DNA of 62,359 nucleotides, filler included, from 3 parts of 3 records of this genome joined end to end with filler, not necessarily neighbours in it, one strand, 5' to 3'; positions 12,993-32,818 are shown, counted from the first letter of the whole stretch. Made by a program: numbers and translations. The notes: a model not told the origin generated them from the letters alone.

Positions 12993-13427
<435 letters not shown>

Positions 13428-15954: not shown

Positions 15955-17799
15955 GTGAAAAAGATCCGCGAGTTTCTAGAAGTCTTCGGGCAATCGTCTG
16001 GAAAGTGGATCGTGCTGGCGTCCATGGTGGGTGTGTTGGTTGGGATTGGAGCGATCGTTTTTGATCGTTTGGGCCGTGTCGTCGTGCGTTTTGCCATGGC
16101 TCAGTTCACCGGTTACGCACCGATGGAAGCCGCTGGCGAAGAAGCCGTGATGATGCCGGCCGATGCGGTGTTCTCGCCGTGGATGCTGGTGCTGGTGATG
16201 ACCCTGGGGGGACTCGTTTCCGGAACAATCGTGTACTGGTTCGCTCCGGAAGCGGAAGGATCCGGTGCGGATGCGGTCATCGACGCATTCCACAATCGTC
16301 GCGGAAAAATGCGGGCGCGGATTCCGCTGGTCAAAACCGTTGCGTCGGCGATCACGCTGGGGACCGGCGGTTCGGGCGGTCGTGAAGGACCGATTTCACA
16401 AATTGGTGCCGGGTTGGGATCAGTGTTGGCCGACCGGCTGAAGTTGTCACCGCGTGACCGCCGGATTCTGATGGCCGCGGGAATGGGCGCGGGCGTCGGT
16501 GCGATCTTTCGTGCGCCATTGGCCGGTGCTGTTTTTGCAGCGGAGATTCTGTACAGCGATTCGGACATGGAAGCCGATGTGATCGTGCCTTCAGCGACCG
16601 CTTCGATTGTTGCCTACAGCTTGTTCACGCAAGCGTTACCGATCGAGTTTCGGTATATGCCACTGTTTGGTGATGATTTGCATCACACGCTGACCTCGCC
16701 GTTGGAGTTGTTGCCTTACGCGTTTTTGGCGATTGCGGTCACGATTGTCGGGGTGATCTACGTCAAATTGTTTTCCGGAACGCGACGACGATTTCTGGAG
16801 TTGCCACTGTGGCCGCATATCAAACCAGCCATCGGTGCGGTTATGGCCGGTTTGGTTGGGATCGGATTGTTTCGCATGGTCGGCAACAACATGCACGCGT
16901 TGGGAGTCTTGGGAACCGGATACGGAACGCTGCAGTTGGCGCTAACGAATGCGGCGGAGCTCGGAATTCCGATGTTGTTGATCATCGTGTTCGCAAAGAT
17001 CGTGACCACCGCATTGACGATTGGATCGGGTGGGTCCGGCGGTGTGTTCGGTCCGTCGATGGTGATCGGAGGTTGCTTGGGAGCCGCGATTGGCCTTGGT
17101 TTCCAAGCGATGTTCCCGAGCGTGGTGACTCAGCCAGAAGCGTATGCGGTGGTTGGAACGGCGGGCTTTTTTGCGGGCGTTGCGAGAGCACCGATTTCAA
17201 CGATCATCATGGTCCGTGCTTTGACGGGTGATTTCGGGTTGCTGGTGCCAACGATGTTGGTGACGACGCTCAGTTTTGTGATGTGCAGTCGCTGGCGTTT
17301 GTATCATTGGCAAGTTCCCACGAGGATGGATTCGAAGGCTCATCGTGGCGATTTCATCGTCGACGTTCTCGAAGGGCTGAAGGTGGGAGATGTGTTTGAC
17401 CCGAATCGAAAGGTGTTGCTGATCCCGGAAGCGACGACCCTGGACGAGATCGTTCACTGTTTGGCAGACAACCAGCAGCACTATTTTCCCGTGGTGGACA
17501 AGCAAAAACGGATCGTCGGTATCTTCAGTGATGATGACGTTCGGACTTACCTGTACAACGATTCGATTTGGCGGCTGGCAGTTGCCAACGACGTCATGAC
17601 CACCGATTTGGTCAGCGTCACCCCAGAAGACGATTTGAATACGGCGCTGAAGCGTTTCACGTCGTTGAACTTGGAAGAATTGCCGGTGATTGATATCGAT
17701 GAGCCAGGCAAGTTGCTTGGGATGCTGCGACGCAAAGAAACGATCGCGGCCTACAACCGCCGTTTGGTCGAGCACAAACAAACCGCTGAAGATGCATAG
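15955..17799 (+). CDS. ClC-family chloride channel/transporter with C-terminal CBS pair
   Basis: GSGAD, GREGP, AIFRAPLAG, GSGGSGGVFGP motifs; two CBS domains. Confidence 0.92.
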   Translation: MKKIREFLEVFGQSSGKWIVLASMVGVLVGIGAIVFDRLGRVVVRFAMAQFTGYAPMEAAGEEAVMMPADAVFSPWMLVLVMTLGGLVSGTIVYWFAPEAEGSGADAVIDAFHNRRGKMRARIPLVKTVASAITLGTGGSGGREGPISQIGAGLGSVLADRLKLSPRDRRILMAAGMGAGVGAIFRAPLAGAVFAAEILYSDSDMEADVIVPSATASIVAYSLFTQALPIEFRYMPLFGDDLHHTLTSPLELLPYAFLAIAVTIVGVIYVKLFSGTRRRFLELPLWPHIKPAIGAVMAGLVGIGLFRMVGNNMHALGVLGTGYGTLQLALTNAAELGIPMLLIIVFAKIVTTALTIGSGGSGGVFGPSMVIGGCLGAAIGLGFQAMFPSVVTQPEAYAVVGTAGFFAGVARAPISTIIMVRALTGDFGLLVPTMLVTTLSFVMCSRWRLYHWQVPTRMDSKAHRGDFIVDVLEGLKVGDVFDPNRKVLLIPEATTLDEIVHCLADNQQHYFPVVDKQKRIVGIFSDDDVRTYLYNDSIWRLAVANDVMTTDLVSVTPEDDLNTALKRFTSLNLEELPVIDIDEPGKLLGMLRRKETIAAYNRRLVEHKQTAEDA

Positions 17800-17808
17800 C
17801 CATTCACG

Positions 17809-18690
17809 TCAGAAGTTCTTTGAGTACTCGCAAAGTCGATCGCGAAATTCTGCGAACAGGCGGCTTTGAAATCGATATGGGTTGGTCACGCATACGATCC
17901 GTCGCGTTGGTCGTGGACTGACGAACGACTTGTAGACTCGTCGTTTGCTGCGATCCAAGCGTCGGGCCATCTCGGGGATCATCGAGATTCCGTGTGACAG
18001 AGAGACCAATTCCTGAACGGTTGCCAATTGGTTGGCTCGTTCAACCGCAACGGGCAAGAACGATCGTTGCCGGCAAAACGAATGAATGTTCTCGGACAAG
18101 CAGTGGGCTTCGTCCAGCATCACGAACGGTTCTTCTTCCACATCCTTCATGCTGATGCGGTCTTTGTCGCAAAGCGGATGATCGGGAGGAAGGAGCAAGC
18201 ACAGTTCCTCCTCCATCAACGGTTTGACCTCAACGTATTTTTCCGAGATCGGTTCGGCAAGGATCGCCAGATCGATTTCGCCCTGCTTGATCCGCTTGAG
18301 AAGTTCGTCGGTCGTGTTCTCGTGCACGATCAGTTGCGATCGAGGAAACGCGTTGGAGAATTGCTTCAGTAGGTTCGGCAGAAAGTACGGCGCGATCGTG
18401 GGAATTGCCCCGATTCGGATCTTGCCGGTTTCTCCATCGTCCGTGATCTCCGCACGCGTGTCTTCCAGGATTCGAAGGATCTGCGTGGCACTGCGTTGAA
18501 ACAACAATCCCGCGTCAGTCAGTTCCACCGAGCGAGGTTTTCGTTCAAAAAAAGGTTGCCCAAATTCTTCTTCGAGTCGCTGGATCGATCGACTCAGCGC
18601 CGGTTGTGACAGGTTCATTCGCGTGGCTGACTCGGTGAAGCTTTTCGTTTCCGCAACGCTTTGGAAGTACTTCAGTTGGTCAATGTCCAT
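17809..18690 (-). CDS. LysR-family regulator, OxyR-like
   Basis: [39 protein letters not shown] gives C-X8-C. Start placed at MDIDQLKYF. Confidence 0.85.
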
Positions 18691-18952
18691 CGAATCATCA
18701 CAAGCAGAAAACGGATCAAGCAGCGGCGAGGTCGGCATCCAGTCTAGATCGAAGCGACGCCGGGCGGCTACCTTAGGCTCCAAACGCACGTGGCGACACC
18801 AACTGTTCGATGAGCTCGTTGCGGGAGCGATCTGCCAGAGTTGCCAGTCGATGCTTGTTGAGGACCAATTGAACTGAGATTGAGGCTGAAGTGTATATTC
18901 TCGGTCGGTTCGCAACGAACGGTGTGCTGGGCGGTATTGCGTACCGGCGACA

Positions 18953-19969
18953 TCAGGGGCTTGTGCCTAAGATGCGTTGATAAATGACAACGTAGCTGTC
19001 GGCCATTCGGTCGATTGAGAAACGATCGACGACGGATTGGCGAACGGCGACACGGTCGAGTTCGTCGATTCGCTCGATCGCCTGCACCGCTTCTTGCAAG
19101 TTGTTGACCAAGAATCCGGTCACGCCGTGTTCGATCAGTTCGGGCATCGATCCACGGTTATTGGCGATGACGGGCGTGCCGCACGCCATGGCTTCGATGA
19201 CAGAAAGCCCGAATGGTTCGTCGAAGTTGATCAGGTGCAACAAGGCACGAGCATTTCCCAACGCATGGAGTCGTTCCGGACCGCCGATGACACCGTGATA
19301 GGTCATGCTGACGCCATCGTCCGCGGGTGCAACGTGCATGTCGTGGTAGTGCTCGTCTTGCACGATGCCGTACATGTGCAGCGGACGCTTGCTGAGACGG
19401 GCGGCTTCAATTGCCTCTGCCGCTCCCTTGTCAGGATGGATTCGTCCGAAGAACAAAAGGTCTTCGCCGCGTTCAGGTTGAAATGGGAAGTCATCGATGG
19501 GGATTCCGTGGTGAATCGTTGCTGCGTATCGCAGACTGGGATGTCGGTCTGCGTCACTGATCGCGATGTAGTGAACCAGGTCTTGGTACTCCTGGTACAT
19601 CGGCAAAATTCTGTCGGATGAGAATCCATGAATGGTGGTGACGATCGGAGTTCCAATCAGTCTGGCAAAAGCGTGGGCGGGAAAGTCTGCCTGATTGTGG
19701 ATCAAGTCAAACTGGTCGGCTTGTTCAAACAGGTGGGCAAGATGTCGAAACTCCCACACCTTGGCATCGATCGATGCGTCTTCGCTGTACGGAGCCGGAA
19801 CCACACCAGCGAGCTTTCCCGATGTTTTGCTGTCTAGCGTGGCGAAGAGGGTCACGTCGACGCCGCGTTTGACGAGAGCCTCGGTCAGCATGCTGGTGAC
19901 CAATTCCCACGGACCGTAGGCACGCGGTGGTGTTCTCCAAGCGATCGGGGCCAGCATGGCTATTCGCAT
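18953..19969 (-). CDS. Glycosyltransferase family 4
   Basis: MRIAMLAP...[30 protein letters not shown]. Confidence 0.9.
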
Positions 19970-20072
19970 CGAAGGTTCGCTTTCTGATTCGTGGCGAAGA
20001 CGTTGGTTGAGATGCAAAGTATCGGAGATGGATCGATTCGGCGTTCGTACGTTGAGTGGACCAGCGATTCGG

Positions 20073-21833
20073 TCATGGAACTTGTCCGGATCGATCTTCG
20101 CTGTCTACCAATTGCAGAAGGAGCCCTTCGTTTGGTGCGAGAGTGCCATCGATCGCTCGAGGGGATGCGGTGGAACAGAGCACCGTGACGAGGGCAGCTT
20201 TGGACGGCACCGGCAACGATCGGGTTTGCTCACTGAGGTTCAGCGCGATCAACAGGTGTTCGTCGCCGTGTCTTCTTTCGAAAGCGAGCACATCATCGTC
20301 GGAATCGAGAAGTGTGAAGTCGCCGACCGACAACGCAGCGTGGATTCGCCGAAGTGAGAGCAGTGTTCTGTACAAATTCAAAATTGACTGTGGATCCGCC
20401 TCCTGCGTCGCAACGTTTCGTTGACGCCAATCAGGATTGAGCGGGAGCCACGTGTCGTTGACGCTGAAGCCGGCGAAGGCGGAATCGTCCCAAGGCATCG
20501 GCGTGCGGGATCGATCTCGTCCGATATTTAATTCAGGTTGCCGTAAAGCCTGAGGGTCGCGAATTTGATCGCGAGGAATGGGGACCTCGCCAATCCCAAT
20601 CTCGTCGCCTTGATAGAGCGTGGGCGTGCCACGCAGGGTTAGCAGCAGCATGGCGGCGACTCGGGATTGAGCGTCACCAAGTCGGGCGGCAATGCGAGGA
20701 GCATCGTGACTGCCCAAAACCCAATTCGGCCATCCAAAGTTTGGAAGGGACGCTTCGTAGTCAGCGATCACACGTCGGAGGGTTGGAGCGTTCCAATCGC
20801 ATTCGATGAGATGAAAGTTGGTCGGCAGATGTACCTCCGGTCGTTCTTCCGTCCCAAACCATCGAGCGAGTCGATCATTGGGCAGGCTGATCTCACCAAT
20901 TAAAACGCGATCACCGTAGTTGTCCGCCAGGGTGCGAAACTCAGCCGCGATTTCGTGGGCTTCTGGTTGGTCGGTGGAGTGCAGCTGAATCAGCTGGTCA
21001 CGCTGTGTACGGTCAGACGTCCAGTCCGGATTGATCGGATTGTCTCGAAGAGCGGCGTCTTTGACGATGTGCCAAAGCACGTCCATGCGAAATCCATCGA
21101 CACCGCGATCCAACCAGAACCGCAGGACATTCATCATCGCCTCACGCAGTTCGGGATGACGCCAGTTGAGATCGGGTTGCTGCGGAAGAAAGGCGTGCAA
21201 ATAGTATTGCTGGGTCGTTGCGTCCCATTGCCAAGACGAGCCACCGAAATCGCTGATCCAATTGTTAGGTGGACCGCCGTCAGCTGATGCATCTCGCCAG
21301 ATGTACCAATCCCGCTTGGGATTGTCGCGAGATGAACGGCTCTGGACAAACCATGGATGTTGATCTGATGAGTGGTTCGGAACAAAGTCCATCAGAAGCT
21401 TGAGACCACGCGAATGCATGGCGGTGAGCAACCGATCGAAGGCTGTCAGATCACCGAACAACGGATCAATGCCGCAGTAGTCCGAGACGTCGTAACCGAA
21501 ATCGAACATCGGCGAAGGATAAATCGGTGAAAGCCATACCGCGTCAACTCCGAGGCGAACCAGATAGTCCAGCCGTTGCTTGATACCTGCCAGATCGCCC
21601 ACACCGTCGGCATTGCTGTCTTGGAAAGACCGCGGATAGATTTGATAGATCACACCGGTTTCCCACCAGCGACGTTCGGCTGGTTTCGACGGAGCAGATT
21701 TTTGTGAATGCGTTTTGATAGTGAAGGGATGCCTTGGTCGGTTGTGAGGCGTAAAATTCGAATTGGCAAAACGCGGGGCGATTGCCTGTTGCTGCATTTC
21801 GTACTCGACAGTCGCCATGTTCCGCCCATGCAA
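20073..21833 (-). CDS. GH13 alpha-glucosidase / oligo-1,6-glucosidase family
   Basis: YQIYPRSF, DFGYDVSDY, DFVPNH, QPDLNW, GFRMDV (nucleophile), IGE, GSHD. Start uncertain. Confidence 0.92.
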   Translation of the reverse strand: MHGRNMATVEYEMQQQAIAPRFANSNFTPHNRPRHPFTIKTHSQKSAPSKPAERRWWETGVIYQIYPRSFQDSNADGVGDLAGIKQRLDYLVRLGVDAVWLSPIYPSPMFDFGYDVSDYCGIDPLFGDLTAFDRLLTAMHSRGLKLLMDFVPNHSSDQHPWFVQSRSSRDNPKRDWYIWRDASADGGPPNNWISDFGGSSWQWDATTQQYYLHAFLPQQPDLNWRHPELREAMMNVLRFWLDRGVDGFRMDVLWHIVKDAALRDNPINPDWTSDRTQRDQLIQLHSTDQPEAHEIAAEFRTLADNYGDRVLIGEISLPNDRLARWFGTEERPEVHLPTNFHLIECDWNAPTLRRVIADYEASLPNFGWPNWVLGSHDAPRIAARLGDAQSRVAAMLLLTLRGTPTLYQGDEIGIGEVPIPRDQIRDPQALRQPELNIGRDRSRTPMPWDDSAFAGFSVNDTWLPLNPDWRQRNVATQEADPQSILNLYRTLLSLRRIHAALSVGDFTLLDSDDDVLAFERRHGDEHLLIALNLSEQTRSLPVPSKAALVTVLCSTASPRAIDGTLAPNEGLLLQLVDSEDRSGQVP

Positions 21834-21860
21834 ACGCTTGGCAGCCAGCGAATAGCAATG

Positions 21861-23306
21861 TCAGATCATCATCGCGAGAAGCTCTTTGAGCTCGATGGTG
21901 GCGAAGGTTGTTGCGTAATCCGACATCGCATAAGGAATCACCAAGTGGTTTTGATGGATGATTGCGCCGCAGGTGTAGACCACATTCGGAACGTATCCTT
22001 CTCGCTCGATTTCGTTGGGGGTGACCAAGGGCTCACGCAATCGTGCAATGACTTTGGATGGATCGTTCAGGTCCAGCAGCATCGCTCCGATGCAATACTT
22101 GCGCATCGGTCCGACACCGTGCGTCAGGACCAACCAACCGGCGTCGGTCTCGATTGGCGATCCGCAGTTGCCCATTTGGACGTATTCCCATGGCTCCGCA
22201 GGCTTGATGATCAGTTCGCTGGTGTGCCAGAAGTACAGCATGTCGGAGTACATCAAAAACAAATGCTCCCCGTCTTGCCGGCCTAACATCGCATAGTGAC
22301 CATTGATTTTCCGCGGGAACAGTGCCATGCCTTTGTTGGCGACGGCAGGTCCGTTGAGCGTATGCATTTTGAAACGCAGGAAGTCCTTCGTTTCTAGTAG
22401 CTGAGGCAGTACCAATTGCCCGTCGTAAGCACTGTAGGTTGCGTAGTACCGACTGCTGCCATCGTCTTCCGTGAAGTGCACGAACCGTGCGTCTTCGATT
22501 CCATTGCTTTCCGTCGGACTGAATGGAAAAACAACCCGCTCGGAAAGTTCGTGGTCGGGGGTGTATTGAATTTCGTAATTCGATTTCGCAAGCATCACAA
22601 CGCGGTCCACCAGCGGCGCCAATTCGTTGTGAATCGAACGGTGTTCACGCAGCGATGCTTGCAATCGCGTTTCCAATTCTTCGAGAGTGAATTCGGTCGG
22701 CAAGGCCGCCAGCACTTCATAGGTGAACGTGTTTCCCAGCCCAAGTTCAATCAACTTGCGTCGAAACAGATCGTTTTCATAACAAGAGTCGGGAACGTAC
22801 CGGGGCGTTGTGACAAATCGCACCGGCTCATCAATCTCAATGCCAAGATCGCAATTGATCGTGCCGCTTCGAAAAACGATGGACGAGATATGGCCCTCGC
22901 CGACTGCTCGCAGACTCATGGCAAAACGTCGCGAACCCGATGGCAGATCGGATTGGTCGGGATGCCAAACGAGTGAGGGGTTGAATAATGCTGCCGATTC
23001 CAACGCGTACTCCTGAGTGAAGTACGCCCCCAACAGCAAACGCCGGTTCTCGCTCAGTGGCGTGTCAGTGAGCAAATGATGCTTGAGGTCACGGAATCTT
23101 CGTTCGAAGTAGGCTTTGGGTTTTTGATGTCGACCGTGAAATTCCTCGAGGACATGAGAGATGAGTTGGCTGACCTCCACTTCGGACAACGTGCAGACAC
23201 GTCCGATGATACGCAGCACGCGGTCGTCGCCGGGCGGTTGGAACGGTCGCAGGACGACACGTTGGCTGTTGGGCGATAGAACGATTCCGGTTCGTTTGAT
23301 TGGCAA
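21861..23306 (-). CDS. GH130-family glycosidase/phosphorylase, long form
   Basis: ALFNPS, GIEDARF, NKGMALFP, GNCGSP, LTHGVG, GYVPNVVYTCG. Confidence 0.85.
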   Translation of the reverse strand: MPIKRTGIVLSPNSQRVVLRPFQPPGDDRVLRIIGRVCTLSEVEVSQLISHVLEEFHGRHQKPKAYFERRFRDLKHHLLTDTPLSENRRLLLGAYFTQEYALESAALFNPSLVWHPDQSDLPSGSRRFAMSLRAVGEGHISSIVFRSGTINCDLGIEIDEPVRFVTTPRYVPDSCYENDLFRRKLIELGLGNTFTYEVLAALPTEFTLEELETRLQASLREHRSIHNELAPLVDRVVMLAKSNYEIQYTPDHELSERVVFPFSPTESNGIEDARFVHFTEDDGSSRYYATYSAYDGQLVLPQLLETKDFLRFKMHTLNGPAVANKGMALFPRKINGHYAMLGRQDGEHLFLMYSDMLYFWHTSELIIKPAEPWEYVQMGNCGSPIETDAGWLVLTHGVGPMRKYCIGAMLLDLNDPSKVIARLREPLVTPNEIEREGYVPNVVYTCGAIIHQNHLVIPYAMSDYATTFATIELKELLAMMI

Positions 23307-23312
23307 GATAGT

Positions 23313-25589
23313 TCAGTGAGTTGGATTGGCGACGACACGCAACGTGGTATGAAGGCCTCGCATCTCGGCGAGCGAAAGTAGGAATGCGAGTGTTGACTCG
23401 GCACCCTGGTTTGCATTGACTTGGTTTTCCATCAAGCCGTCGAAGCAACCGCCCGTCGAAGGGTCGTAGATCGGTTGGCCAAGATCGTTGCGGCCCAAGA
23501 ACCAGTCGAATGCCAAGTGCGCTTGTTCGGACCAGAATTTGTCCTTGGTCGCAGCAAACGCTTCGATGGAGGCTGAAACCATGGCGTGAGCCTCGATTGC
23601 TTGCTGATCGAAGACTGCCGCGACTCCGCCCTCAGGACTGAATCCGTTGGAACCGATCGGACGGAAACGTCCTTGTGGAGAAAGTTGAACTTCGCAGAGC
23701 CAACGCAGGGACTTCATTCCAATGTCGGCGACGCGTTGATTGTCGAACCAGCGACCATGAGTGATCATGGCCTGGGATAGCTTTGCGTTGTTGTATGTTG
23801 CGATCTTTTCAAACCAAGGCCAAGCGTCGGTGGCGGTGGCGTCGTACATGTCGGCCAATCGTTCAGCGAGCTGATGACTCATCGCCGCAGCAACACGATC
23901 GCCACTGTAGCGGCGGAGATATTCGTGGATTCCGATGATCGCGAGGGCCCATGTTCTCGGTGAGGAGGTCTTTTCACACGCCGGAAGTGCTTGGTGAAAC
24001 ACTTCGCGTGCCCAGGCAACCAAACCCGCGTTGCTCGATCGGCCGATGCAAGTTCCCAACGCCCACAAAGCGCGGCCTTGCGAGTCGTCGGAGCCGTCGG
24101 TTTCGAGCCATTGCCGATCAAAGCTAAGGAAATTGCGAAAACGTCCGGTTTCTCGATTGAAGGCGTTGTTGAGGAACGCCGCGTAACGTGACGCCAACGA
24201 ACGCACTTCAGTCGAATCTTTGCCTTGCTCCTCCAGCAGCACCGTCAGAATCAAAGCTCGTGCGTTGTCGTCGGTGCAATACCCGTGCGCATGATCAGGA
24301 ATGGAATAGATCGCGTGTTGGACGACACCGGTTGAATCGCTGAGGTGTTGCAAGTGATCCAGCTGCATTTGTGGCAGTGCCAATGGTTGCTCGTCCAACG
24401 TGCGGACGGCCAGTGGCTTCAAGGACGATGTTCGTTGGTCACGAGCCCGATTGAACGAATCAATGTACAACTGCGAAACGTGTTCCCACGTCATGTCCCG
24501 GCCAAGGTCATATGCTTTGTCACGCATCGCCATGCGTCGGTCGTCGTCACTCAACAGTCCGATCACTTCGCGAGCGATCGCGGATGGATCCGCGAAGGGA
24601 ACCAGGACTCCGCGTCCGTCGGCGAGTAATTCTTCGGCGTGCCAGTAGGGAGTCGAGATGACCGCCTGGCCACACCCGAATGCGTAAGCGAGCGTTCCCG
24701 AGACAGCTTGTTCGACGTTCAGGTAAGGCGTGATGTACAGGTCGGCGGCACCAATGAATTCAGTCAGTTCTTCCAGTTCAACGAAACGGTTGTAGAAGCT
24801 GACATGCTTGGAAACCCCCAGTTCCTTCGCCATCCGTTCCAAGCTGATTCGATAGCGTTCGCCTTGTTCGCGAAGCAGACTGGGGTGAGTGGCACCCAGA
24901 ATGATGTAGATGAAGTCTGGGAATTTCGCGACGATTTCAGGGATCGCTTTCAGTACGTGCTCGATTCCCTTTCCCGGTGAGAGCAATCCAAAAGTCAGAG
25001 CGACGGGTTTATCCTCCACACCGAATTGTTCTTTGAGAACGCTTTGGTCGGTTTCAGGAGCCTCTGGGATGCCGTGAGCGATCACGTCGATCTGGTCGCT
25101 GTCGACCGAGTAGGTGTCCAGCAACGTTTGCCGACTGCGTTCGGTCATCACGACCAAACGAGTGGAAAGGCGAATGAGCTGCATCATCACGGCACGTTGG
25201 GCTTCGTTTGGTTCCGATAGAACCGTGTGAAGTGTCGTGACAACCGGCATCCGCACGTCTTGGAGAAGTGCCAAAATGTGGCTTCCGCAGGGGCCACCAA
25301 AGATGCCAAATTCATGTTGTAACGAGATGACATCCACGTTGCTGAAGTTCAGAAAGTCAGCGGCCGATTGGTATTCATCCAGTTCCTGATCGGCGACTTG
25401 GAATTGGACTTCGTTGTCATAGGCGTAACCGCCTTCGATGTCGTCGAGCGTGACAACGATGCATTCAGCGCAAGTCTCTCGGGCGACACCGATGCGCAAA
25501 TCATGCGTGAAGGTTGCGATACCACATTTTCGTGGCAGGTAGTCACCGACGAAGGCTATCTTCAGAAGGTCATTTGATATCATTGACAT
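23313..25589 (-). CDS. GT4 glycosyltransferase fused to a C-terminal six-hairpin-like helical domain
   Basis: PRKCGIATFT, QHEFGIFGG, FGLLSPGKG, SGTLAYA; C-terminal GYCTDDNARAL, DSQGRALW, NQGAESTL. Confidence 0.88.
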   Translation of the reverse strand: MSMISNDLLKIAFVGDYLPRKCGIATFTHDLRIGVARETCAECIVVTLDDIEGGYAYDNEVQFQVADQELDEYQSAADFLNFSNVDVISLQHEFGIFGGPCGSHILALLQDVRMPVVTTLHTVLSEPNEAQRAVMMQLIRLSTRLVVMTERSRQTLLDTYSVDSDQIDVIAHGIPEAPETDQSVLKEQFGVEDKPVALTFGLLSPGKGIEHVLKAIPEIVAKFPDFIYIILGATHPSLLREQGERYRISLERMAKELGVSKHVSFYNRFVELEELTEFIGAADLYITPYLNVEQAVSGTLAYAFGCGQAVISTPYWHAEELLADGRGVLVPFADPSAIAREVIGLLSDDDRRMAMRDKAYDLGRDMTWEHVSQLYIDSFNRARDQRTSSLKPLAVRTLDEQPLALPQMQLDHLQHLSDSTGVVQHAIYSIPDHAHGYCTDDNARALILTVLLEEQGKDSTEVRSLASRYAAFLNNAFNRETGRFRNFLSFDRQWLETDGSDDSQGRALWALGTCIGRSSNAGLVAWAREVFHQALPACEKTSSPRTWALAIIGIHEYLRRYSGDRVAAAMSHQLAERLADMYDATATDAWPWFEKIATYNNAKLSQAMITHGRWFDNQRVADIGMKSLRWLCEVQLSPQGRFRPIGSNGFSPEGGVAAVFDQQAIEAHAMVSASIEAFAATKDKFWSEQAHLAFDWFLGRNDLGQPIYDPSTGGCFDGLMENQVNANQGAESTLAFLLSLAEMRGLHTTLRVVANPTH

Positions 25590-25592
25590 GGT

Positions 25593-26663
25593 TTACTTGT
25601 GGGGAATGCGTTCGAGCGAATCCAGAATGGATTGCTTTGAAAGCTGAACCGATGCCACGCAGGCGTCGGCCGCTCCATAGAAAATTTGCAGGGCGTCGCT
25701 ACGGTCCAGCATTGCGGTGGGAAAGACGACGTTGGGAACAAACCCGACGCGTTCGTGCTCCCTGATGGGCTGCAGCACCGGTTGTGGGGACCTGCCCAGC
25801 ACTCGATTCGGATGTTCGCGGTCCAGCAACAGGGCTCCCGCGGAATAGGTGCCAACCGTTCCGCTGGTGCTTGGACGAGTGCAGCCGTGATAGAGCGTCA
25901 ACCAGCCCTGGTCGCATTCGATTGGCGGCGTTCCGCTTCCGACGCGGTCGCCTTCCCAATCATGCACGCCATCCAGTACGAGTTCGTGGCGGCCCCAGTG
26001 AATCATGTCCGGCGATCGAGCCAACCAGATTTGAGGTGGGCGAAAGTGAGAGCGTGGATTCGGTCGGTGCAATGCGACGAAGTCGTCCTGGATCATTTCG
26101 GGAAACAGGACCACGTCCTTGTTCTCGCTGGGGAAGATGATCCCGTGTCGTTGAAAGTTCACCAGATCGTCTGAGGACATCAGTGCGGTCGCGGCACCCG
26201 ATCGAGAAACCGCGACATAGGTGATCCAAAAAGTGTTTTCAATCTTGGTCACCCGCGGGTCTTCGATGCCGTATTCTTCCCAAGGTCCTTCCGGGAGGAT
26301 CGTCGTGATAGACTGCCAATTCACTCCTTCGCGGTTTGTCGATCGAAAGAGTTGGAAATGGGAGGTGGACGTCAAACGCAAGTCACCGTTGCTCTTCATC
26401 GCAACCACTCGTGCATCGGCGATTTCCAAATCGGCGTTGTTGACCCAATCGATCTGCGTGGTACCGGATGAGGCCCACCGAGGGAGCGGCGTCCAACCTT
26501 TTCGCTGTTCCGTCGGAGCTTCCGCGACTCGGGCGAGCATCACAAGATAATCGTCGACCGATGCCACCGCCGGATTGAAAACTCCAACGACTCGAAGGTC
26601 GGTTTGCGATGGGTGAATGTCGCACGGTTGCAAGATCACGGATTCGGATTGACGATCGATCAT
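25593..26663 (-). CDS. GH130-family glycoside phosphorylase-like protein
   Basis: GVFNPA, GIEDPR, ENKDVVLFP, LHRP, LYHG, VPNVVFP. ATG 26663 overlaps the Enzyme I stop (ATGA). Confidence 0.87.
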   Translation of the reverse strand: MIDRQSESVILQPCDIHPSQTDLRVVGVFNPAVASVDDYLVMLARVAEAPTEQRKGWTPLPRWASSGTTQIDWVNNADLEIADARVVAMKSNGDLRLTSTSHFQLFRSTNREGVNWQSITTILPEGPWEEYGIEDPRVTKIENTFWITYVAVSRSGAATALMSSDDLVNFQRHGIIFPSENKDVVLFPEMIQDDFVALHRPNPRSHFRPPQIWLARSPDMIHWGRHELVLDGVHDWEGDRVGSGTPPIECDQGWLTLYHGCTRPSTSGTVGTYSAGALLLDREHPNRVLGRSPQPVLQPIREHERVGFVPNVVFPTAMLDRSDALQIFYGAADACVASVQLSKQSILDSLERIPHK

Positions 26664-28456
26664 GAGCATGACTCGATCGCATCGATGGACCTTCCGGGGC
26701 CATTGCTGATCATTTGGTTCTTTGTTGCCAATCGCAGCATTTGTCGCACCTCTTGTGGACAACGACAATCTTGTGCCTTCAGTGCCAACGCACTCGCATG
26801 GGTTGAATCCATTTTCGCGATGGCCGTACGAAGTTTTTCGGACCGCGAGGCAGTGACACTGAGTTCTCGAATTCCAAGACCGATCAGCAATTCCGCGAAT
26901 TCAGGGTCGCCGGCTTCTTCGCCGCAAACGCAAACTGGGCAGTCCCACCGTTTCGCGGCAGAGGCGATTTGGTGAATGGCTCGCAAGACCGCCGGGTGCA
27001 TTGCGGTCACCTGATCGTTTTCGGCCGAAAGTTCACGGTCGGCAGCCAACAGGTACTGGGTGAGGTCGTTGGTTCCGATCGCGATGAAGTCGGCCAGTTC
27101 AAGGATCTCGTCCAGACAAAACAACGCCGCGGGCGTTTCGATCATCGCGCCAATCTGAGGCCGCTTGAATGCGCTGCACTCTTCGACGACTTCGTCGACC
27201 ATCGCGATCGCTTGAGAAAAATCATGACCTCCAATCACCATCGGGAACAATATTTTCACGTCGGCGTCTTGTGCCACGCGGACGATCGCCGTCAGTTGAG
27301 AACGCAGTAAATCTTTTTCGGCGAGCGAAAAGCGAAGGCCCCGCAAGCTCAAACTGGATGCATCGACATTTTCGTCTTGTGACAAAAACGGAGGCAGTTT
27401 GTCTCCTCCGAGATCAAATGTGCGGATGACCAATGGACGGTCGCCCAAACGAGCGGCCATCTGTTCGTAGAGCAGACGTTGGGATTCTGTGTCCGGTCGT
27501 CGTTCGGATTGAAGGTAGAGAAATTCCGTGCGGAACAAGCCGACTCCTGCCAGCCCATGATGAAGGACTTGGTCAAGATCGGCAGCCAGTCCGACGTTGC
27601 CGTGCAGCGTGATGTCGGTACCGTCGAGCGTTTGACATGTCGAGGCGGTCGCGGGATCGGAGTGGTTGGCTTGAAGGGTATCGGATTCGCGATTCGCAAC
27701 TGCCATTCGCGAATCAAATTCAGACAGTTCCTGCTCGCTCGGTTCGGCGGTGACGATACCCGCATCGCCATCAATCAAAAGCGTCATTCCGCTCGTGATT
27801 CGCTGAGTTGCATTGGCGATGCCGGAAACAGCGGGGATGCCCATCGATCGAGCGATGATCGCGGTGTGGCCGAGATTGCCGCCGACTTGGGTGACAATGC
27901 CGACGATGCCGGAGTTTGCCAACGCAATTGCATCAGATGGTGCGAGTTCTCGTGCGACGATGATTGCATTTTCGGGAAGTTCATCCAGACGGGTTGCTGT
28001 CATCCCCATGAGATGCCGCTTCATCCGCTGACCAATGTCTCGAACATCCGTCTCGCGTTCGCGAAGGTAATCGTTGTCGATTTTGGTCAGTCGGCCGACG
28101 GTTTGGCAGATCACCGACTCCAGCGCATCCTCGACCCCAACGAGATCGTGAGAGATTCGATCTTTCACCAGCGAAGCGATTTCGCCCGCCATGGATGCAT
28201 GAGCGGAAACCAAATCAATTGCCGAGGCGATGGAGGTATTGTCCGTGGCGATGGACTTGAGGTCCTGGAGGTCTTGTTTGGACTTTTCAAGAGCGACGTC
28301 CATTCGGTCGCATTCGCCAGAAACGTTCGACCGTGAAATAGGATCTGAAACGTCGTCACTCGGCAGAGTGATCGTGCGTTGCAATTCATAGCCCAACACG
28401 ACAGCGACTCCTTTGGCGAGTCCGATCGATAGTGAATTCCCTTCCATGCGTTTCAT
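26660..28456 (-). CDS. ptsI: Phosphoenolpyruvate-protein phosphotransferase (PTS Enzyme I-like, no GAF domain)
   Basis: YLRER..D..D, GG..GHTAIIARS.GIP (phospho-His), GVGLFRTEFL, RTFDLGGDK, MIETP, GTNDLTQY, VCGE (catalytic Cys). Start placed at MKRMEG after AGGA; the ORF is open to 28504. Confidence 0.88.
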   Translation of the reverse strand: MKRMEGNSLSIGLAKGVAVVLGYELQRTITLPSDDVSDPISRSNVSGECDRMDVALEKSKQDLQDLKSIATDNTSIASAIDLVSAHASMAGEIASLVKDRISHDLVGVEDALESVICQTVGRLTKIDNDYLRERETDVRDIGQRMKRHLMGMTATRLDELPENAIIVARELAPSDAIALANSGIVGIVTQVGGNLGHTAIIARSMGIPAVSGIANATQRITSGMTLLIDGDAGIVTAEPSEQELSEFDSRMAVANRESDTLQANHSDPATASTCQTLDGTDITLHGNVGLAADLDQVLHHGLAGVGLFRTEFLYLQSERRPDTESQRLLYEQMAARLGDRPLVIRTFDLGGDKLPPFLSQDENVDASSLSLRGLRFSLAEKDLLRSQLTAIVRVAQDADVKILFPMVIGGHDFSQAIAMVDEVVEECSAFKRPQIGAMIETPAALFCLDEILELADFIAIGTNDLTQYLLAADRELSAENDQVTAMHPAVLRAIHQIASAAKRWDCPVCVCGEEAGDPEFAELLIGLGIRELSVTASRSEKLRTAIAKMDSTHASALALKAQDCRCPQEVRQMLRLATKNQMISNGPGRSIDAIESCS

Positions 28457-28500
28457 TCCGTTTTCCTGTGAAAATCTCGTCTCGCGTAACCCTGCCTGGA

Positions 28501-28794
28501 TCAACTCATTCCGGCGATCACTTCACCGAAGGATTGTCCACCGATGGATCCCGCGTGCCGATAAGTTGGCGGATCGGAGACCGCATCGAGTTCGTACAGA
28601 GCGACGCTTGTCAGAGCCCCGCCGTTTGGCGATTTGCGATCTTCGATTCGATTGAGTTGCCGAAATGTGTCCCGGGTGATGAAGCACAGAATTTCAGCCG
28701 CAAATGAACCCTTCGTTGACAGTTGGTGGTGGCCGTCAAACGGTCCCCCTCGAAATTCAATCCAAGGTCCCGTGCTATCGCTGACGCGTAACAT
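28501..28794 (-). CDS. Small hypothetical protein
   Basis: Co-oriented, directly upstream of Enzyme I; IEF.GGPFDG motif; not HPr-like. Confidence 0.55.
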   Translation of the reverse strand: MLRVSDSTGPWIEFRGGPFDGHHQLSTKGSFAAEILCFITRDTFRQLNRIEDRKSPNGGALTSVALYELDAVSDPPTYRHAGSIGGQSFGEVIAGMS

Positions 28795-29062
28795 GGTGAT
28801 GACCCCAGTGTTTTTGCAGTTGCCGAGAAAAGTTCAGTGAACTCAAGCTGCCGTTGTGTTCGATTCGAAGTTGGGTGGCAAAATCGTTTTGGTCATAAAC
28901 CGAATTCGTGTGTGACTGACAAAATCGGTGTGCATCAATCTGATGGAACGACTCATACTCACCATGAAACAATGGCCAACCCGAGCGGATCGTTTCGTCC
29001 CATTGGCTCGGGACGTCGTCTGAGATCGCTTGCCAATGTTGCATGGCACGATTGCCATTCAT
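28775..29062 (-). CDS. Possible small hypothetical protein
   Basis: ATGA overlap with the upstream ORF stop; no recognisable motif. Confidence 0.25.
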   Translation of the reverse strand: MNGNRAMQHWQAISDDVPSQWDETIRSGWPLFHGEYESFHQIDAHRFCQSHTNSVYDQNDFATQLRIEHNGSLSSLNFSRQLQKHWGHHHVTRQR

Positions 29063-29613
29063 GCCGATGGCTCAGCCGAAGCGGAGAACGAAATCGCCTC
29101 CGCTTGATACTTTGATGTTGTTGAATCAAAGATCAACTTGTGAGAAAGATTGACGGTCTTTGAGCCGAGCCGCATCGCTTCGAGAACATTTTGAAATGTC
29201 GCGGCATTGGCGGTCGTCTGTGTCGGCGATTCTGGATCGATCACCACCAGGTGCACCTCGTCCGCGTTCTGATCAACATGCTTTTCTAGAAAGCGTTTGA
29301 CCAACGGATACGGCGTCAATGCTAGCGAGCTCGCCTTCAGGAACATGTCATATCGGGCTTTGTCGGAGAACCCGTAGATGACGACGGAATGGGCTTGCAG
29401 CGAAGTTTCCGTCATCGAAGGACAGATTGGATACGCCGCGTCGTTCAAGACATAGCGTGGTGTGTTGGAAGTACCGTCCACGGAGATCGCCTCCTCAGGC
29501 CATCGATAGGCCTGCTGCGGTTTGTCTGCCGTAGAGAATCCACGACGAGAGCGAACTGCGGATCGCGAAAAGGGAGGTTTCAGTCGCGGATGCGAGGAAA
29601 CAGCTAGCGGCAC
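29059..29613 (-). CDS. Hypothetical protein
   Basis: 184-aa ORF with a protein-like C-terminal two-thirds. Start uncertain. Confidence 0.55.
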   Translation of the reverse strand: MPLAVSSHPRLKPPFSRSAVRSRRGFSTADKPQQAYRWPEEAISVDGTSNTPRYVLNDAAYPICPSMTETSLQAHSVVIYGFSDKARYDMFLKASSLALTPYPLVKRFLEKHVDQNADEVHLVVIDPESPTQTTANAATFQNVLEAMRLGSKTVNLSHKLIFDSTTSKYQAEAISFSASAEPSA

Positions 29614-29741
29614 CTAAGTGCACGCTTCGCGCAAGCCAACGTTGCAGGCTACCACGATTCCTAACCAAGACAATCGCAAATTCAACGATGGGGGCTGAAA
29701 GCGGCCTTCGACAGAGAATCACCAATTCGTGCGGCTCTCGT

Positions 29742-30896
29742 TCAGTCTGTTGTTGGGGCCGACGCTGTTGAAGGGGCCGACGTTTCGTTATCAAACGGCC
29801 AACCGGGAAGCTCACCGCAGCTTTGCAACGCGAGGATGGCGTAGGCCGTTCCTGTGTTGGAAATCAAGTTGCCAGCATCATTGACCGGCGAGCGTGTGAA
29901 CCACTTGCCGCTTTCTCGCTGGTTTTCGAGTAACCACTGAATTCCTCTTCGCATTCGCGGATCGCTTGCGGGAATACCGAGTTCTCTGCTGATCACGATA
30001 ACCAATCCAGTCCCATAGGCGTCACTGGTTTGCGTATCCAGTGGTTCACCATCATTTCGCTCGAGACCTTTCCAGTCGGTCAAGAAACCAGCCGTCGACC
30101 AGCCTCCGTCAGGAAGTTGTTTCGCGAGAAGTTCTTCCAGCGTTCTTTGACGTTCGTCCTCCGTCGCGATCCCATCGAGCCGCTTGGAACACCAGGCGAT
30201 CATGGCACGATGATGCAATGACTTGGGCGGGTTGTTTTCGAAGTAGGCCCGAAGTTTGCCGAGCCCTGCCTGGGCGGCTTCCGTCTTCAAGTACCCATCC
30301 GGCGCGATGCCAACCGCGAGTGCAGCCAGCGTGACTCCGAAGTGATCATCGATTTCCATGGGAGCGTAGTCGCAGTCCGGCCAATCCCATCCGCCATCGG
30401 CACGCTGTGTGGTCCACAAAAAGTCCAAAACATCACGTGTGACTGGACGAAGGTGTCCGCTTGTTTGCATGTCGTTGAACGTCAGACCGGCACCGACGAC
30501 GATCACCCAAAATCCTTGGCTTTCGGTGGGATCCTTCTTCGCCCAACGCTCTGTTCGGTACCGTTCAAAGAACTCACGGACTTCGCCTGAGTCCTTTTGG
30601 ACGGACGACAACGCCGGCCGGGCGAACATGTACGGCATGTTGGTGTGACAGGTCACACACTTCTTTTCTTTTTGCCAAGTCAATGAAGAGCGATCGAGGT
30701 AGATCGCAGCTTGCTTCGCCGAGAACGCTGCCGCGATCGGTTCATCGGCATCAATCGAGTCTCGTTTGGATGGAACGGATTCCAGCGTGACGACTTCGGT
30801 TTGTGCTTGTGCAATCTTCGGAAAGGTAAATGCCAACCACACGAGCGACACAAAGATAGCTCCCGCTATGGTGCGTCGGGGAGGTTTGAAACCCAT
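29742..30896 (-). CDS. Exported prenyltransferase / squalene-hopene-cyclase-like QW-repeat protein
   Basis: Signal peptide; QRADGGW, QLPDGGW, QRESGKW repeats; CVTCH motif. Confidence 0.8.
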   Translation of the reverse strand: MGFKPPRRTIAGAIFVSLVWLAFTFPKIAQAQTEVVTLESVPSKRDSIDADEPIAAAFSAKQAAIYLDRSSLTWQKEKKCVTCHTNMPYMFARPALSSVQKDSGEVREFFERYRTERWAKKDPTESQGFWVIVVGAGLTFNDMQTSGHLRPVTRDVLDFLWTTQRADGGWDWPDCDYAPMEIDDHFGVTLAALAVGIAPDGYLKTEAAQAGLGKLRAYFENNPPKSLHHRAMIAWCSKRLDGIATEDERQRTLEELLAKQLPDGGWSTAGFLTDWKGLERNDGEPLDTQTSDAYGTGLVIVISRELGIPASDPRMRRGIQWLLENQRESGKWFTRSPVNDAGNLISNTGTAYAILALQSCGELPGWPFDNETSAPSTASAPTTD

Positions 30897-30981
30897 GTGA
30901 TTGTTTCGCTCGTGGATGGAGGTGAGTGTTCAGAACTGGGGCTAGCAGTTTGTTGGTTTAGTCGTGTACCGAATGACAACC

Positions 30982-31008
30982 ATAAGCCGATGGGCGTTAG
31001 CCCCGGTT
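30982..31008 (+). repeat. REP-like palindrome at contig end
   Basis: AGCCG-AT-GGGC-GTTA-GCCC-CGGTT hairpin immediately before the break. Confidence 0.55.
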
Positions 31009-31014
31009 GGCGTC

Positions 31015-31114
31015 NNNNNNNNNNNNNNNNNNNNNNNNNNNNNNNNNNNNNNNNNNNNTTAATTAATTAANNNNNNNNNNNNNNNNNNNNNNNNNNNNNN
31101 NNNNNNNNNNNNNN
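31015..31114. other. Artificial contig spacer
   Basis: N44-TTAATTAATTAA-N44 (stops in all six frames); gene style changes across it. Confidence 0.99.
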
Positions 31115-32818
31115 GCCCAAACGCACGTAATCCATGAACTGGTAGCGGCCGGGGCCATAAACCATGAGATTGGTCTGATAACCCAGAGGCGTAATAAACG
31201 ACGCCGAAGCAGCGAACATCACGGCCACGGCAAACGGCAGGAAATGAACGCCTAATTGTTCAGACACCGCCAACGCAATCGGAAACATCAGCACCGCTGC
31301 CGCGTTGTTGGTAATAGCTTCGGTAAAGGCAGCGGTGAGGATATACACCAACGCCAGAGCGAGCCAGGGCGTGAGCGGGCCGAACAGGCCCAGCAGGCTG
31401 GCGGCTACCCACTCTGCTCCGCCAGTTTCTGCCATGGCATTACCCAAGGCAAAGGAGGCCGCGACCACCACCAGTACAGGCAGGTCCACACTGCGGCGGG
31501 CGCGGCTGGCGGTAATGCAACCGGTTACAATCATCGTACCGGCCGCCAGGAATGCCGCTTCAATAATCTGCAGCAGGCCCGTGGCGCTAGCCACAACCAT
31601 CAGCAAGAGGATTCCAAGGGCTCGGGGCGCCTTGTGGAAATCCGGTGGCGTGGAATCGTTCAGGGCGCTGACCAACAGGAAGTCTCGGCGAAAACGGTAT
31701 TGCTCCACAAATTCGTGGCTAGCCTCCAGCAACAGGGTATCCCCCATCCTGAACGTAATATCGCCCAATTTTCCCGGCACCCGTTTGCCCTCGCGGGAAA
31801 CGGAAAGAATCGCAGCATTAAAACGGGTACGGAAACGACTTTCCTGCACCGTCTTACCCAGGGCCGGGAACTCCTGACCAAGCACCACTTCAACCAGGCA
31901 GCGCTGATGATTCGCCAAGTCCAGTTTCTGGATACCCGCCTGTGCGGGTTTCAACCCTTGAATACGTCGCAATTCGCTGGCGCACTCGGGCGCCCCAACA
32001 AAGTACAGTTTGTCGCCGGACTGCAACATCCGGTCCGGCTCCGCCGCTGTAATTAGCCGGCCGCCACGATCGATTTCAGTCAGATAGCCGTAACTGAGCG
32101 CCCGCAAACCAGCCTGGGTAATCGTCTTGCCCACCAACGGGCCTAAGGCTTCTACTTCCACCTCAACCCCGTACTCACGAACCTGATCCAGTTCTTCCTT
32201 CATCCCCCCACGGTCCGGCAGTATTCGCGAGGCCACCAACACCAGATAGCACCCGCCCACCAACAACAAGGGAACACCAACCCAGGCCAACTCGAATAAC
32301 CCCAGGTTAATCCCCATACGCGTTTGCAACATGCCGTCCACCACCAAGTTGGTGCTGGTACCTATCAGTGTGCAGGTACCGCCCAGAATGGCGGCATAAC
32401 TCAGGGGTAACAGAAGACGGGAGGAAGGAATGCCCAGACGCTGGGCCCAGTCTTGAATGGCGGGGATGAACATGGCGACAACAGCCGTATTGTTCATAAA
32501 GCCGCTGAGGATACCTGTCGGCGCCAACATTCGTAGCTGTGCGCCCTTTTCGGTTTTTGGATGCCCCAGCAGCAAACGGGCAATCCACTGCACCGCACCG
32601 GTTTCTTTCAAACCGGCTGCGACAACATATAGCGTACCAATCGTAATCACGCCCGGGTTCGAAAAACCGGCTAATGCCTCAATAGGCCTCAGGATTCCCG
32701 TGATCAGTAGGAAAGCCAGGGCCGCCATCAACACCAGATCCGCAGCAACCCGGGTAATTGCCAACGCAGCCAAGACGGTAAACAGGGTGAGCAGCGTTAC
32801 AACGGCTTCCCATGCCAT
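31115..32818 (-). CDS. SLC13 / CitMHS-like permease with TrkA-C domains (3' truncated)
   Basis: SGFMNNT, LGGTCTLIGTSTNL, two TrkA-C-like segments, TE.ITNNA, TPLGYQTNLMVYGPG.Y.F.DY. Confidence 0.9.

Follow-up and report, generated by a model that had tools for sequence, protein, structure and literature searches.

Why should an Enzyme I of the phosphoenolpyruvate (PEP)-dependent phosphotransferase system (PTS) stand near the head of an array of genes for carbohydrate-active enzymes? The question is raised by a locus of Rhodopirellula baltica, in a stretch of DNA of 62,359 nucleotides (nt) that consists of three joined parts of three records (hereafter the window, across the whole of which coordinates are counted). 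Enzyme I is accompanied there by two glycoside hydrolases of family GH130, a short and a long one (GH130a and GH130b), a glycosyltransferase of family GT4 that carries a second domain (the GT4 fusion), a glycoside hydrolase of family GH13 and a small GT4 (GT4b). The source of the window is evident from the GT4 fusion (758 amino acids, aa), which is 100% identical to a protein cluster named R. baltica SH28, and from Enzyme I, which is 99% identical to another R. baltica-named cluster. A preliminary description had read the region as a cytoplasmic module that builds and breaks a sugar compound under Enzyme I, a view that is partly supported by the analysis given here. The best explanation of the region is that it constitutes a Pirellulaceae elaboration of a widespread cytoplasmic glycoside cassette, itself uncharacterised, to which Enzyme I is a lineage-specific addition.

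The array and its conserved core

All genes of the array lie on the minus strand, in the order orfA, orf95, orf97, Enzyme I, GH130a, GT4 fusion, GH130b, GH13 and GT4b. Open reading frames (ORFs) and family scans agree in this respect with the gene set, families, order and single strand as first described. The stop of Enzyme I (PEP-protein phosphotransferase, 598 aa, 26660..28456; the maximal ORF is 26660-28504, with the ATG at 28456 as the probable start) overlaps the start of GH130a (356 aa, 25593..26663) as ATGA at 26663-26660. GH130a and the GT4 fusion (23313..25589) are separated by 3 bp, and the GT4 fusion and GH130b (481 aa, TTG start, 21861..23306) by 6 bp; these spacings had been given before and were confirmed by direct reading of the junctions. 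Further upstream, the stop of orfA and the start of orf95 likewise overlap as ATGA, orf95 and orf97 overlap by 20 nt, and some 45 nt separate orf97 from the ATG of Enzyme I. Translational coupling of the 5' half of the array is supported by these junctions, and the 3' genes are spaced more loosely, with 27-42 nt ahead of GH13 (20073..21818 from an ATG, or to 21833 from a TTG start) and about 100 nt ahead of GT4b (338 aa, 18953..19969). A scan for promoters and terminators yielded nothing exceeding shuffled sequences (12 terminator-like sites vs 15.4 expected), and the terminator-like sites on the gene strand within the array are all located inside ORFs. In keeping with the earlier remark on signal peptides, no N-terminal hydrophobic leader is visible in the six enzymes, as judged by eye and without a signal-peptide program, and a cytoplasmic location of the array enzymes is supported.

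To what extent is this arrangement found elsewhere? One profile scan of species-representative genomes, made with an alignment of 32 members of the GT4-fusion family, returned at least 600 stretches, of which 80 loci were kept and then searched by tblastn with the window proteins. The loci belong to Acidobacteriota, Verrucomicrobiota, Planctomycetota, Desulfobacterota, Chloroflexota, Sphingomonas and others. A GH130 gene of any kind lies near the GT4 fusion in 61 of the 80 loci, and in 38 of the 44 in which both flanks extend over at least 5 kb. Taken separately, the long GH130 is found in 38 loci, the short GH130 in 37, GT4b in 19, Enzyme I in one and GH13 in none. The commonest orders are GT4 fusion followed by long GH130 (18 loci) and GT4 fusion followed by short GH130 (13 loci), and there are four-gene versions of the cassette that include GT4b, which adjoins the fusion at 40-61% identity to its counterpart in the window. 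The fusion stands alone in 14 loci, and four further loci without a match to GH130 or GT4b bring this number to 18; in 12 of these, one flank or both are shorter than 5 kb. At the level of single proteins, the GT4-fusion family numbers 30025 matches (E <= 0.001) among 50%-identity representatives, and the two-domain architecture is kept in the best 150 of these.

Apart from the members of the cassette, no family recurs in more than 7 of the 80 loci, in a clustering that relied on a greedy ORF caller, which took antisense ORFs in GC-rich loci (e.g. cluster 2). A phosphomannose-isomerase-like gene is a neighbour in three loci, and the recurring neighbours are mostly signalling proteins, i.e. PAS histidine kinases (7 loci), extracytoplasmic function sigma factors (5), Ser/Thr kinases (4) and sigma-54 activators (3). 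The presence of other signalling genes beside the cassette in other phyla makes a local regulator in the Pirellulaceae plausible.

The reach of the Enzyme I linkage within the family was assessed in two close Pirellulaceae loci, namely Rhodopirellula sp. SWK7 (locus L001) and a metagenome-assembled genome (MAG; locus L002), and by means of matches in the exact size of the longest contig. In SWK7 a short orfA, an orf95-like ORF, Enzyme I (64% identity), GH130a about 20 nt further on, the GT4 fusion and GH130b follow one another. Among 120 listed Enzyme I clusters, 14 have a longest contig of exactly the same size in nt as one of 120 listed GT4-fusion clusters; four of the matched contigs measure 6867-16685 nt, six others 32-115 kb, and the identity of Enzyme I goes down to 52%. 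By a rough estimate about 0.4 chance matches are expected among the small contigs, which renders the set meaningful and single matches not. In a FastTree phylogeny of Enzyme I, which left out sequences of less than 500 aa and among them the 14th contig match, 12 of the 13 plotted contig-matched proteins fall within the clade of the window protein, and the 13th belongs to a second clade (48-56% identity) that also contains fusions of Enzyme I with PAS and PP2C domains. For the homologues of orfA, the longest-contig size is common to two GT4-fusion clusters and two Enzyme I proteins of the second clade (241452, 19493). The conservation of the linkage that had been envisaged thus holds for SWK7 and for the 14 contig-size pairs (four of them on contigs of at most 17 kb), and it does not hold for L002 and for 79 of the 80 loci. 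The linkage is real, fairly old within the Pirellulales, dispensable, and absent elsewhere.

The encoded proteins and their surroundings

Enzyme I comprises, in this order, the domains PF05524 (58 bits), PF00391 (76 bits) and PF02896 (244 bits), and its score on TIGR01417 (413.7 bits vs a cutoff of 341.7) makes it a member of that family. Residues H197 (in G-H-T-A-I-I-A-R) and C511 (in C-G-E-E-A-G), which we take to be equivalent to H189 and C502 of the E. coli protein, are invariant among 25 Enzyme I relatives, and on sequence a catalytically intact enzyme is supported. The protein has no GAF domain, and it stays below the model of EI-Ntr (PtsP; NF008283, 325.6 bits vs a cutoff of 583, with the match beginning at profile position 173); indeed, it misses the equivalog cutoffs of both PtsP and PtsI. 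Some homologues in the Pirellulales (49-54% identity; P0314, P0319, P0337, P0356 and others) are fusions of about 1000 aa in which Enzyme I is followed by PAS and SpoIIE/PP2C domains, an architecture that links PEP sensing to a phosphatase of the partner-switching type. A published phylogeny of the PTS lists two Enzyme I sequences of R. baltica, and therefore the Enzyme I of the window is very likely not the sole one; the separate Enzyme I that had been asked about earlier probably exists (PMC2405797). Among the taxa named there, the Planctomycetes are without PTS transporters and their Enzyme I sequences group with 'regulatory' ones (PMC2405797), and the whole R. baltica PTS is presumably of this transporter-less, regulatory kind.

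The short GH130a (PF04041, 174 bits) aligns end to end with its closest solved relatives, Uhgb_MS (E 1.3e-59) and Lin0857. The residues aligned to E136, D137, K184, R202, R242 and H261 of Uhgb_MS are all identical and the HRP motif is present. Published accounts of the family identify these residues as the catalytic Asp, as an E/K pair at the +1 subsite that is diagnostic of beta-1,2 specificity and as parts of the phosphate site (PMC7660257, PMC12814180). With its fold, catalytic Asp, E/K pair and phosphate-site Arg and His, GH130a looks like an enzyme of the beta-1,2-mannoside phosphorylase type. The long GH130b (PF04041) has been modelled (predicted local distance difference test score, pLDDT, 90.2) as a single beta-propeller with Teth514_1788 as the nearest fold and with two helical segments inserted (about residues 27-94 and 178-240), so that the family and length first assigned to it stand and an extra N-terminal domain does not. 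The catalytic ED pair, K325, H396, R402 and Y404 are kept in all 31 members of its family. Nevertheless, a complete phosphate-binding site is not found in GH130b: in place of Uhgb_MS R242, 24 of the 31 have Q and 7 have K, and the His of the HR motif is replaced by S, G, A or T in every one of them. It is reasonable to suppose that GH130b uses a different leaving group or catalyses a non-phosphorolytic reaction.

Two variants of the long GH130 were encountered among the loci. In L067, L069, L072, L076 and L080 (Sphingomonas, Pleomorphomonas) it aligns only at residues 10-166 and 251-480, and these alphaproteobacterial proteins appear to be without the second helical insert and to represent a distinct sub-type. 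In an Acidobacteriaceae MAG (L023, 12345-14480) one 712-aa frame runs through both the long GH130 and GT4b; several frame breaks occur in GT4b and in the GT4 fusion of that locus, so that the read-through may be an assembly artefact and not a true fusion.

The GT4 fusion, identified by Pfam GT4 domains and a structure model (pLDDT 91.5), consists of a GT-B domain at about aa 1-389 and an all-helical C-terminal domain at about aa 411-753, and its approximately 360 C-terminal residues have no Pfam match. The folds nearest to the GT domain are those of MshA, PimB', GlgM and BshA, with PimA and sucrose-phosphate synthase also among the near ones, and the best NCBIfam match is to MshA, at 65.6 bits vs a cutoff of 462. 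An identification as sucrose-phosphate synthase was rejected, for TIGR02472 is not among the 14 NCBIfam matches of the fusion and the C-terminal domain resembles 7TEM and not a HAD phosphatase. 7TEM (YPO2471, uncharacterised) is the only solved relative of the helical domain, with a template modelling (TM) score of 0.71. In one cluster of Atlas neighbours the C5-epimerase C-terminal family occurs on 12% of the members, which we treat as a lead, and the conserved acidic and aromatic motifs of the fusion suggest a sugar-binding or hydrolytic role.

GT4b matches TeGSS (7FG9/8X3Q) over its full length (residues 1-335, E 3e-70, about 41% identity as counted by eye). It keeps the TeGSS residues Y18, R179 and K184 (G-R-x-x-P-x-K-G) and the motif EPFGL-x-x-x-E; the Trp10 of TeGSS that stacks on fructose aligns with Ala10 of GT4b, which has a Trp at position 11 (PMC9909042). 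On the basis of its sequence, GT4b can be assigned to the glucosylsucrose-synthase / alpha-1,2-glucosyltransferase family. GH13 (PF00128, 459 bits) has as its best solved relatives the alpha-glucosidases 3WY1 (E 1.5e-138) and 7VOH and the alpha-glucosyltransferase 6AAV, and it reaches only 29.5 bits on the model of sucrose phosphorylase. Its translation contains GFRMDV, GEISL and SHD, presumably the GH13 catalytic motifs with the nucleophile Asp, the acid/base Glu and the stabiliser Asp, respectively, which places it in the alpha-glucosidase / oligo-1,6-glucosidase group.

The head of the array turned out to be longer than described before: the one small ORF that had been placed there, orf97 (97 aa, 28501..28794), stands as an ORF and is preceded by two more, orf95 (28775..29062) and orfA (29059..29481). 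The latter is the first gene of the array and encodes a conserved hypothetical protein of 140 aa, called 'hypothetical protein RBSH_02698' (likewise 140 aa) in one source, whose family counts 31 protein clusters, every organism-named one of which is from the Pirellulales. It has no Pfam match, its nearest Atlas clusters are unnamed Planctomycetota proteins and its conserved motifs are IYGFSDK and LTPYPLVK. The counterpart of orf95 in SWK7 (6534-6821) is a 26% identical ORF that has the C-terminal motif RQLQK.W.H in common with it; orf95 has no Pfam match and a codon score that is weakly positive in frame. The codon score of orf97 is weakly positive as well, and with no Pfam or NCBIfam match and no homologue in the 80 loci it is unconserved and possibly not a gene. 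The idea that one of the small ORFs encodes HPr was rejected, as orf97, orf95 and orfA show no Pfam or NCBIfam match even at E <= 10 and orfA is devoid of a conserved His. A supposed resemblance of orf95 to CsbD was dropped because Pfam gave no support for it in orf95 or in the SWK7 homologue. A complex prediction for residues 1-262 of Enzyme I with orf95 scored 0.00.

Upstream of orfA lies a conserved non-coding leader or promoter region (29482..29700, minus strand), in which a GAGGAGG ribosome-binding site precedes the GTG start of orfA by 8 nt. DNA blocks, including CAGACAAAYCGCAGCAGGYCT and AACCRTGGTAG, are conserved in three species (29482-29700 in the window, 6045-6275 in L001 and 40-262 in L002). 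The RNAalifold consensus contains what may be a long-range helix joining two of the blocks, with a covariation term of only -0.32 over three sequences. No Rfam family matched the leader, and a search of 17000-31500 gave one match at chance level; the region may act as a promoter or be transcribed into a structured leader RNA. Directly upstream of it, at 29742-30896 (minus strand), a secreted protein is encoded that has a signal-like N-terminus, a CxxCH haem motif and repeats of the squalene-cyclase/prenyltransferase type. At the other end, about 260 nt after GT4b and on the same strand, follows the gene of a LysR-type regulator (17809-18915), which is not a conserved neighbour of the cassette, a single weak match having been found across the 80 loci. 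A gene for a P-II nitrogen regulator (12993-13394, minus strand), situated directly upstream of that for the GlnD uridylyltransferase (10332-12983, minus strand), lies about 6 kb from the cassette; the solute pool of R. baltica is reported to shift under nitrogen limitation. Finally, a surface-polysaccharide cluster extends over 33000-57000 (minus strand) and encodes a PglD-like protein, NeuB, two UDP-GlcNAc 2-epimerases, an aminotransferase, a cytidylyltransferase, a Wzz/GNVR and an SLBB export protein, a flippase-like protein, an initiating sugar transferase and a GT4. Its GC content dips to 0.39-0.46 at 36-46 kb, which suggests a horizontal origin of this low-GC centre.

The function of the cassette and the place of Enzyme I

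From the directly observed gene content, tight coupling, conservation patterns and conserved residues we infer substrates, a product, a direction of flux and possibly a phosphotransfer. The reading that we prefer, to which we assign a probability of roughly 45%, is that the cassette serves to synthesise and recycle a soluble gluco-/manno-oligosaccharide or glycoside in the cytoplasm and that it has been joined to a PEP-sensing Enzyme I in one lineage of the Pirellulales. The core would consist of the two-domain retaining GT4-helical protein and one or two GH130s, often together with a glucosylsucrose-synthase-like GT4. The two GT4s would build an alpha-linked gluco-/manno-oligosaccharide, or a glycoside on a small acceptor, from nucleotide sugars. 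GH130a could then reversibly add or remove beta-1,2-mannose via mannose-1-phosphate and phosphate, and GH130b, with its altered phosphate site, might catalyse a similar transfer or cleavage in which the leaving group is another one. The alpha-glucosyl part may in R. baltica be trimmed or recycled by GH13, and the product would serve as a soluble reserve or stress protectant. A simple cycle in which one and the same bond is made and broken, as had been proposed, does not follow from the families, because a retaining GT4 and an inverting GH130 act on different linkages. Enzyme I, orfA and orf95 would have been recruited to the head of the operon in one Pirellulales lineage, and Enzyme I would itself be co-expressed with the enzymes and would most likely feed the PEP/pyruvate state into the system, probably via an HPr-type carrier encoded elsewhere. 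The more specific proposal that Enzyme I phosphorylates or gates the operon proteins was not supported, phosphotransfer being conjectural.

A role in stress or storage has some context in the physiology of the organism. R. baltica accumulates sucrose, trehalose, glutamate and mannosylglucosylglycerate (PMC3694870), and in a microarray study the 'glycosidases RB2988, RB2990 and RB2991' were up at 300 min of cold shock, with FtsH numbered RB2966 (PMC2754498). In the window the FtsH gene lies 11 genes before GH13, and against the RB numbering this position makes RB2988, RB2990 and RB2991 fit GH13, GH130b and the GT4 fusion, with which they are probably identical. The characterised genes for mannosylglucosylglycerate in R. 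baltica are rb1005, rb5546 and rb12347, the operon of which includes a sucrose phosphorylase and a phosphatase (PMC3736172).

A number of observations weigh against the preferred reading. The first concern the unit itself: Enzyme I, GH13 and GT4b are not consistently present, and therefore the seven genes are not conserved as a whole. What had been taken for a single system is in fact a composite, in which the core of GT4 fusion and GH130 lacks an adjoining GH13 in all 80 loci and Enzyme I in all but one of them (by tblastn), from which it follows that the cassette works without Enzyme I. Even among close relatives the picture varies, as neither GH13 nor GT4b lies within about 6 kb downstream in SWK7, and in L002 (a 7.3-kb contig of a close Pirellulaceae MAG) GT4b is missing too and the stop of orfA overlaps the start of GH130a with no Enzyme I between them. 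The contig-size matches are indirect, and lone ones such as that in the second clade (11409) are weak. Secondly, no acceptor for Enzyme I was found. As had been stated for the cluster, Pfam domains of HPr and the EII proteins are lacking, and this extends to the scanned ORFs of the 62-kb window, i.e. all those of at least 150 aa, the ORFs of the cluster and 28 of the 37 small ORFs (60-149 aa) outside long genes; of the remaining nine, the three of the cluster itself were scanned separately and six overlapping alternative frames in 28.4-29.8 kb were left out. Members of the orfA family have no conserved His. Thirdly, the PAS and PP2C fusions of its relatives point to a role of Enzyme I in general signalling and not in a specific pathway. 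As to the enzymes, GH130a stays below the equivalog cutoffs (NF050092, 292 vs 550 bits; NF052550, 187 vs 450), and neither GH130 attains one (292 and 151 bits vs 550). The assignment of the cassette to mannosylglucosylglycerate synthesis (GpgS, MggA, MggB) had to be rejected, the published genes being at other loci (PMC3736172), and no search bore out the idea that MggS is a GH130. The mapping onto the cold-shock genes is putative.

Much of this would equally be expected if Enzyme I were a general regulatory PTS enzyme that has its HPr, HPr kinase and EIIA-Ntr-type proteins elsewhere and whose position in the operon is a historical accident. This is the chief rival, although we consider it doubtful. 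It would account for a cassette that does without Enzyme I in nearly all loci, L002 included, for an Enzyme I in Planctomycetes that have no PTS transporters and for its 'regulatory' grouping (PMC2405797), for the signalling domains fused to homologues at 49-54% identity and for the lack of an acceptor among the scanned ORFs of the cluster. Against a mere accident of position stand, however, the ATGA overlap of Enzyme I and GH130a, an adjacency that is kept in SWK7 at 64% identity, 14 contig-size matches that persist as Enzyme I diverges to 52% identity and orfA homologues whose contig sizes match two Enzyme I proteins of the second clade (241452, 19493). Moreover, the second Enzyme I of R. 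baltica could fill the general role (PMC2405797).

At the other extreme stands a bolder combination, which we regard as unlikely: that the cassette is a new cytoplasmic pathway, spread over more than ten phyla, that acts in bacteria as the equivalent of mannogen or glucosylsucrose reserves, and that in addition the reserve of the Pirellulaceae is under direct PEP/pyruvate control via the Enzyme I of the operon. Enzyme I might in that case act through orfA or orf95 and not through a classical HPr, and further control may come from a conserved structured leader RNA.

Envelope synthesis and pure catabolism are less likely than general signalling. If the cassette served the envelope, its GT4s would build a glycolipid or glycoconjugate in the manner of PimA/PimB, which the GH130s would then trim or recycle. 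The database names of GT4-fusion orthologues do indeed include 'GDP-mannose-dependent alpha-(1-6)-phosphatidylinositol monomannoside mannosyltransferase', but such names are automatic annotations; PimA and PimB' are indeed among the nearest folds, but MshA, BshA, GlgM and sucrose-phosphate synthase, which use small soluble acceptors, are equally near. The cluster for polysaccharide biosynthesis is found in the window at a distance of 4-28 kb, whereas the core as conserved in the 80 loci comprises no flippase, polymerase, lipid-carrier transferase or membrane segment. Since, furthermore, the characterised GH130 phosphorylases are cytoplasmic and act on soluble sugars (PMC7660257) and the nearest characterised relative of GT4b uses free sucrose (PMC9909042), we hold an envelope function to be quite improbable. 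More improbable still is a purely catabolic cassette that salvages imported beta-mannosides or alpha-glucosides like the GH130 cluster of Thermoanaerobacter that feeds GDP-mannose synthesis, because, despite the resemblance of GH130a to characterised beta-1,2-mannoside phosphorylases, the GT4 that the Thermoanaerobacter cluster also has (PMC4264767) and the phosphomannose-isomerase-like neighbour in 3 of the 80 loci, the core is not accompanied in these loci by any conserved transporter, binding protein or secreted glycosidase, its most conserved member is a glycosyltransferase fusion and GT4b is of a biosynthetic family.

Comparison with known systems

The enzyme families of the array are all known already, and it is their combination that was not found described: literature searches, with most subscription journals outside their reach, revealed no linkage of Enzyme I with GH130, no Enzyme I in an operon of carbohydrate-active enzymes and no account of this cassette, in agreement with the earlier statement that no characterised pathway has this composition. 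What appears most valuable is the widespread uncharacterised core together with a concrete candidate target of a transporter-less PTS. If the preferred reading of a cytoplasmic cassette joined to Enzyme I is true, it would provide a function for a very common, unstudied cassette (judging by the 30025 matches of the GT4 fusion), indicate that soil and marine bacteria have a new reserve or protective sugar in their cytoplasm and supply a testable target for the transporter-less PTS, whose targets are mostly unknown outside the Proteobacteria. New enzyme activities might also be found in the subfamily of long GH130s, in which the phosphate site is altered, and in the all-helical C-terminal domain of the fusion.

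Compared with the phosphorylases Lin0857, Teth514_1788/1789 and Uhgb_MS, GH130a is alike in its end-to-end alignment, in its catalytic, specificity and phosphate residues and in having no signal peptide; GH130b, in contrast, differs by its two helical inserts and by the loss of the phosphate-site Arg and His. The genomic context differs as well, in that known GH130 phosphorylases sit in uptake or salvage clusters with ATP-binding cassette transporters (PMC4264767), whereas GH130a sits with glycosyltransferases and Enzyme I. Closer in concept is the mannogen cycle of Leishmania (GT108), in which paralogous propeller enzymes both synthesise and phosphorolyse a beta-1,2-mannan that is kept in the cytoplasm as a reserve and buffers metabolism (PMC10913872); the likeness resides in the two GH130 paralogues with different phosphate sites in one R. 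baltica operon. Nevertheless, GT108 is a remote fold match to GH130b (6q50, E 7e-6, TM 0.36), and Leishmania has no counterpart of the GT4 enzymes of the cassette or of Enzyme I. To our knowledge, no bacterial mannogen has been found.

On the side of the glycosyltransferases, the sucrose-phosphate synthase and glucosylsucrose synthase of Thermosynechococcus (tll1590-tll1591) are likewise two neighbouring retaining GT4s, which make a cytoplasmic stress oligosaccharide (PMC9909042). Tll1590 is among the solved relatives of the fusion's GT domain (E 1.2e-17), yet the GT4 fusion is no nearer to sucrose-phosphate synthase than to MshA, PimB or BshA and carries an extra all-helical domain, and the cyanobacterial pair has no GH130 counterpart. 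With respect to regulation, the nearest parallel is the transporter-less PTS (EI-Ntr/NPr/EIIA-Ntr and the 'EI-R' group), in which a PEP-dependent Enzyme I likewise functions without permeases and is presumed to be a metabolic reporter (PMC2405797). Unlike EI-Ntr, the R. baltica Enzyme I lacks a GAF domain, and genes for HPr, NPr or EIIA are absent from its vicinity. That a PTS protein can regulate a storage-glycan phosphorylase is exemplified by E. coli, where HPr controls glycogen phosphorylase.

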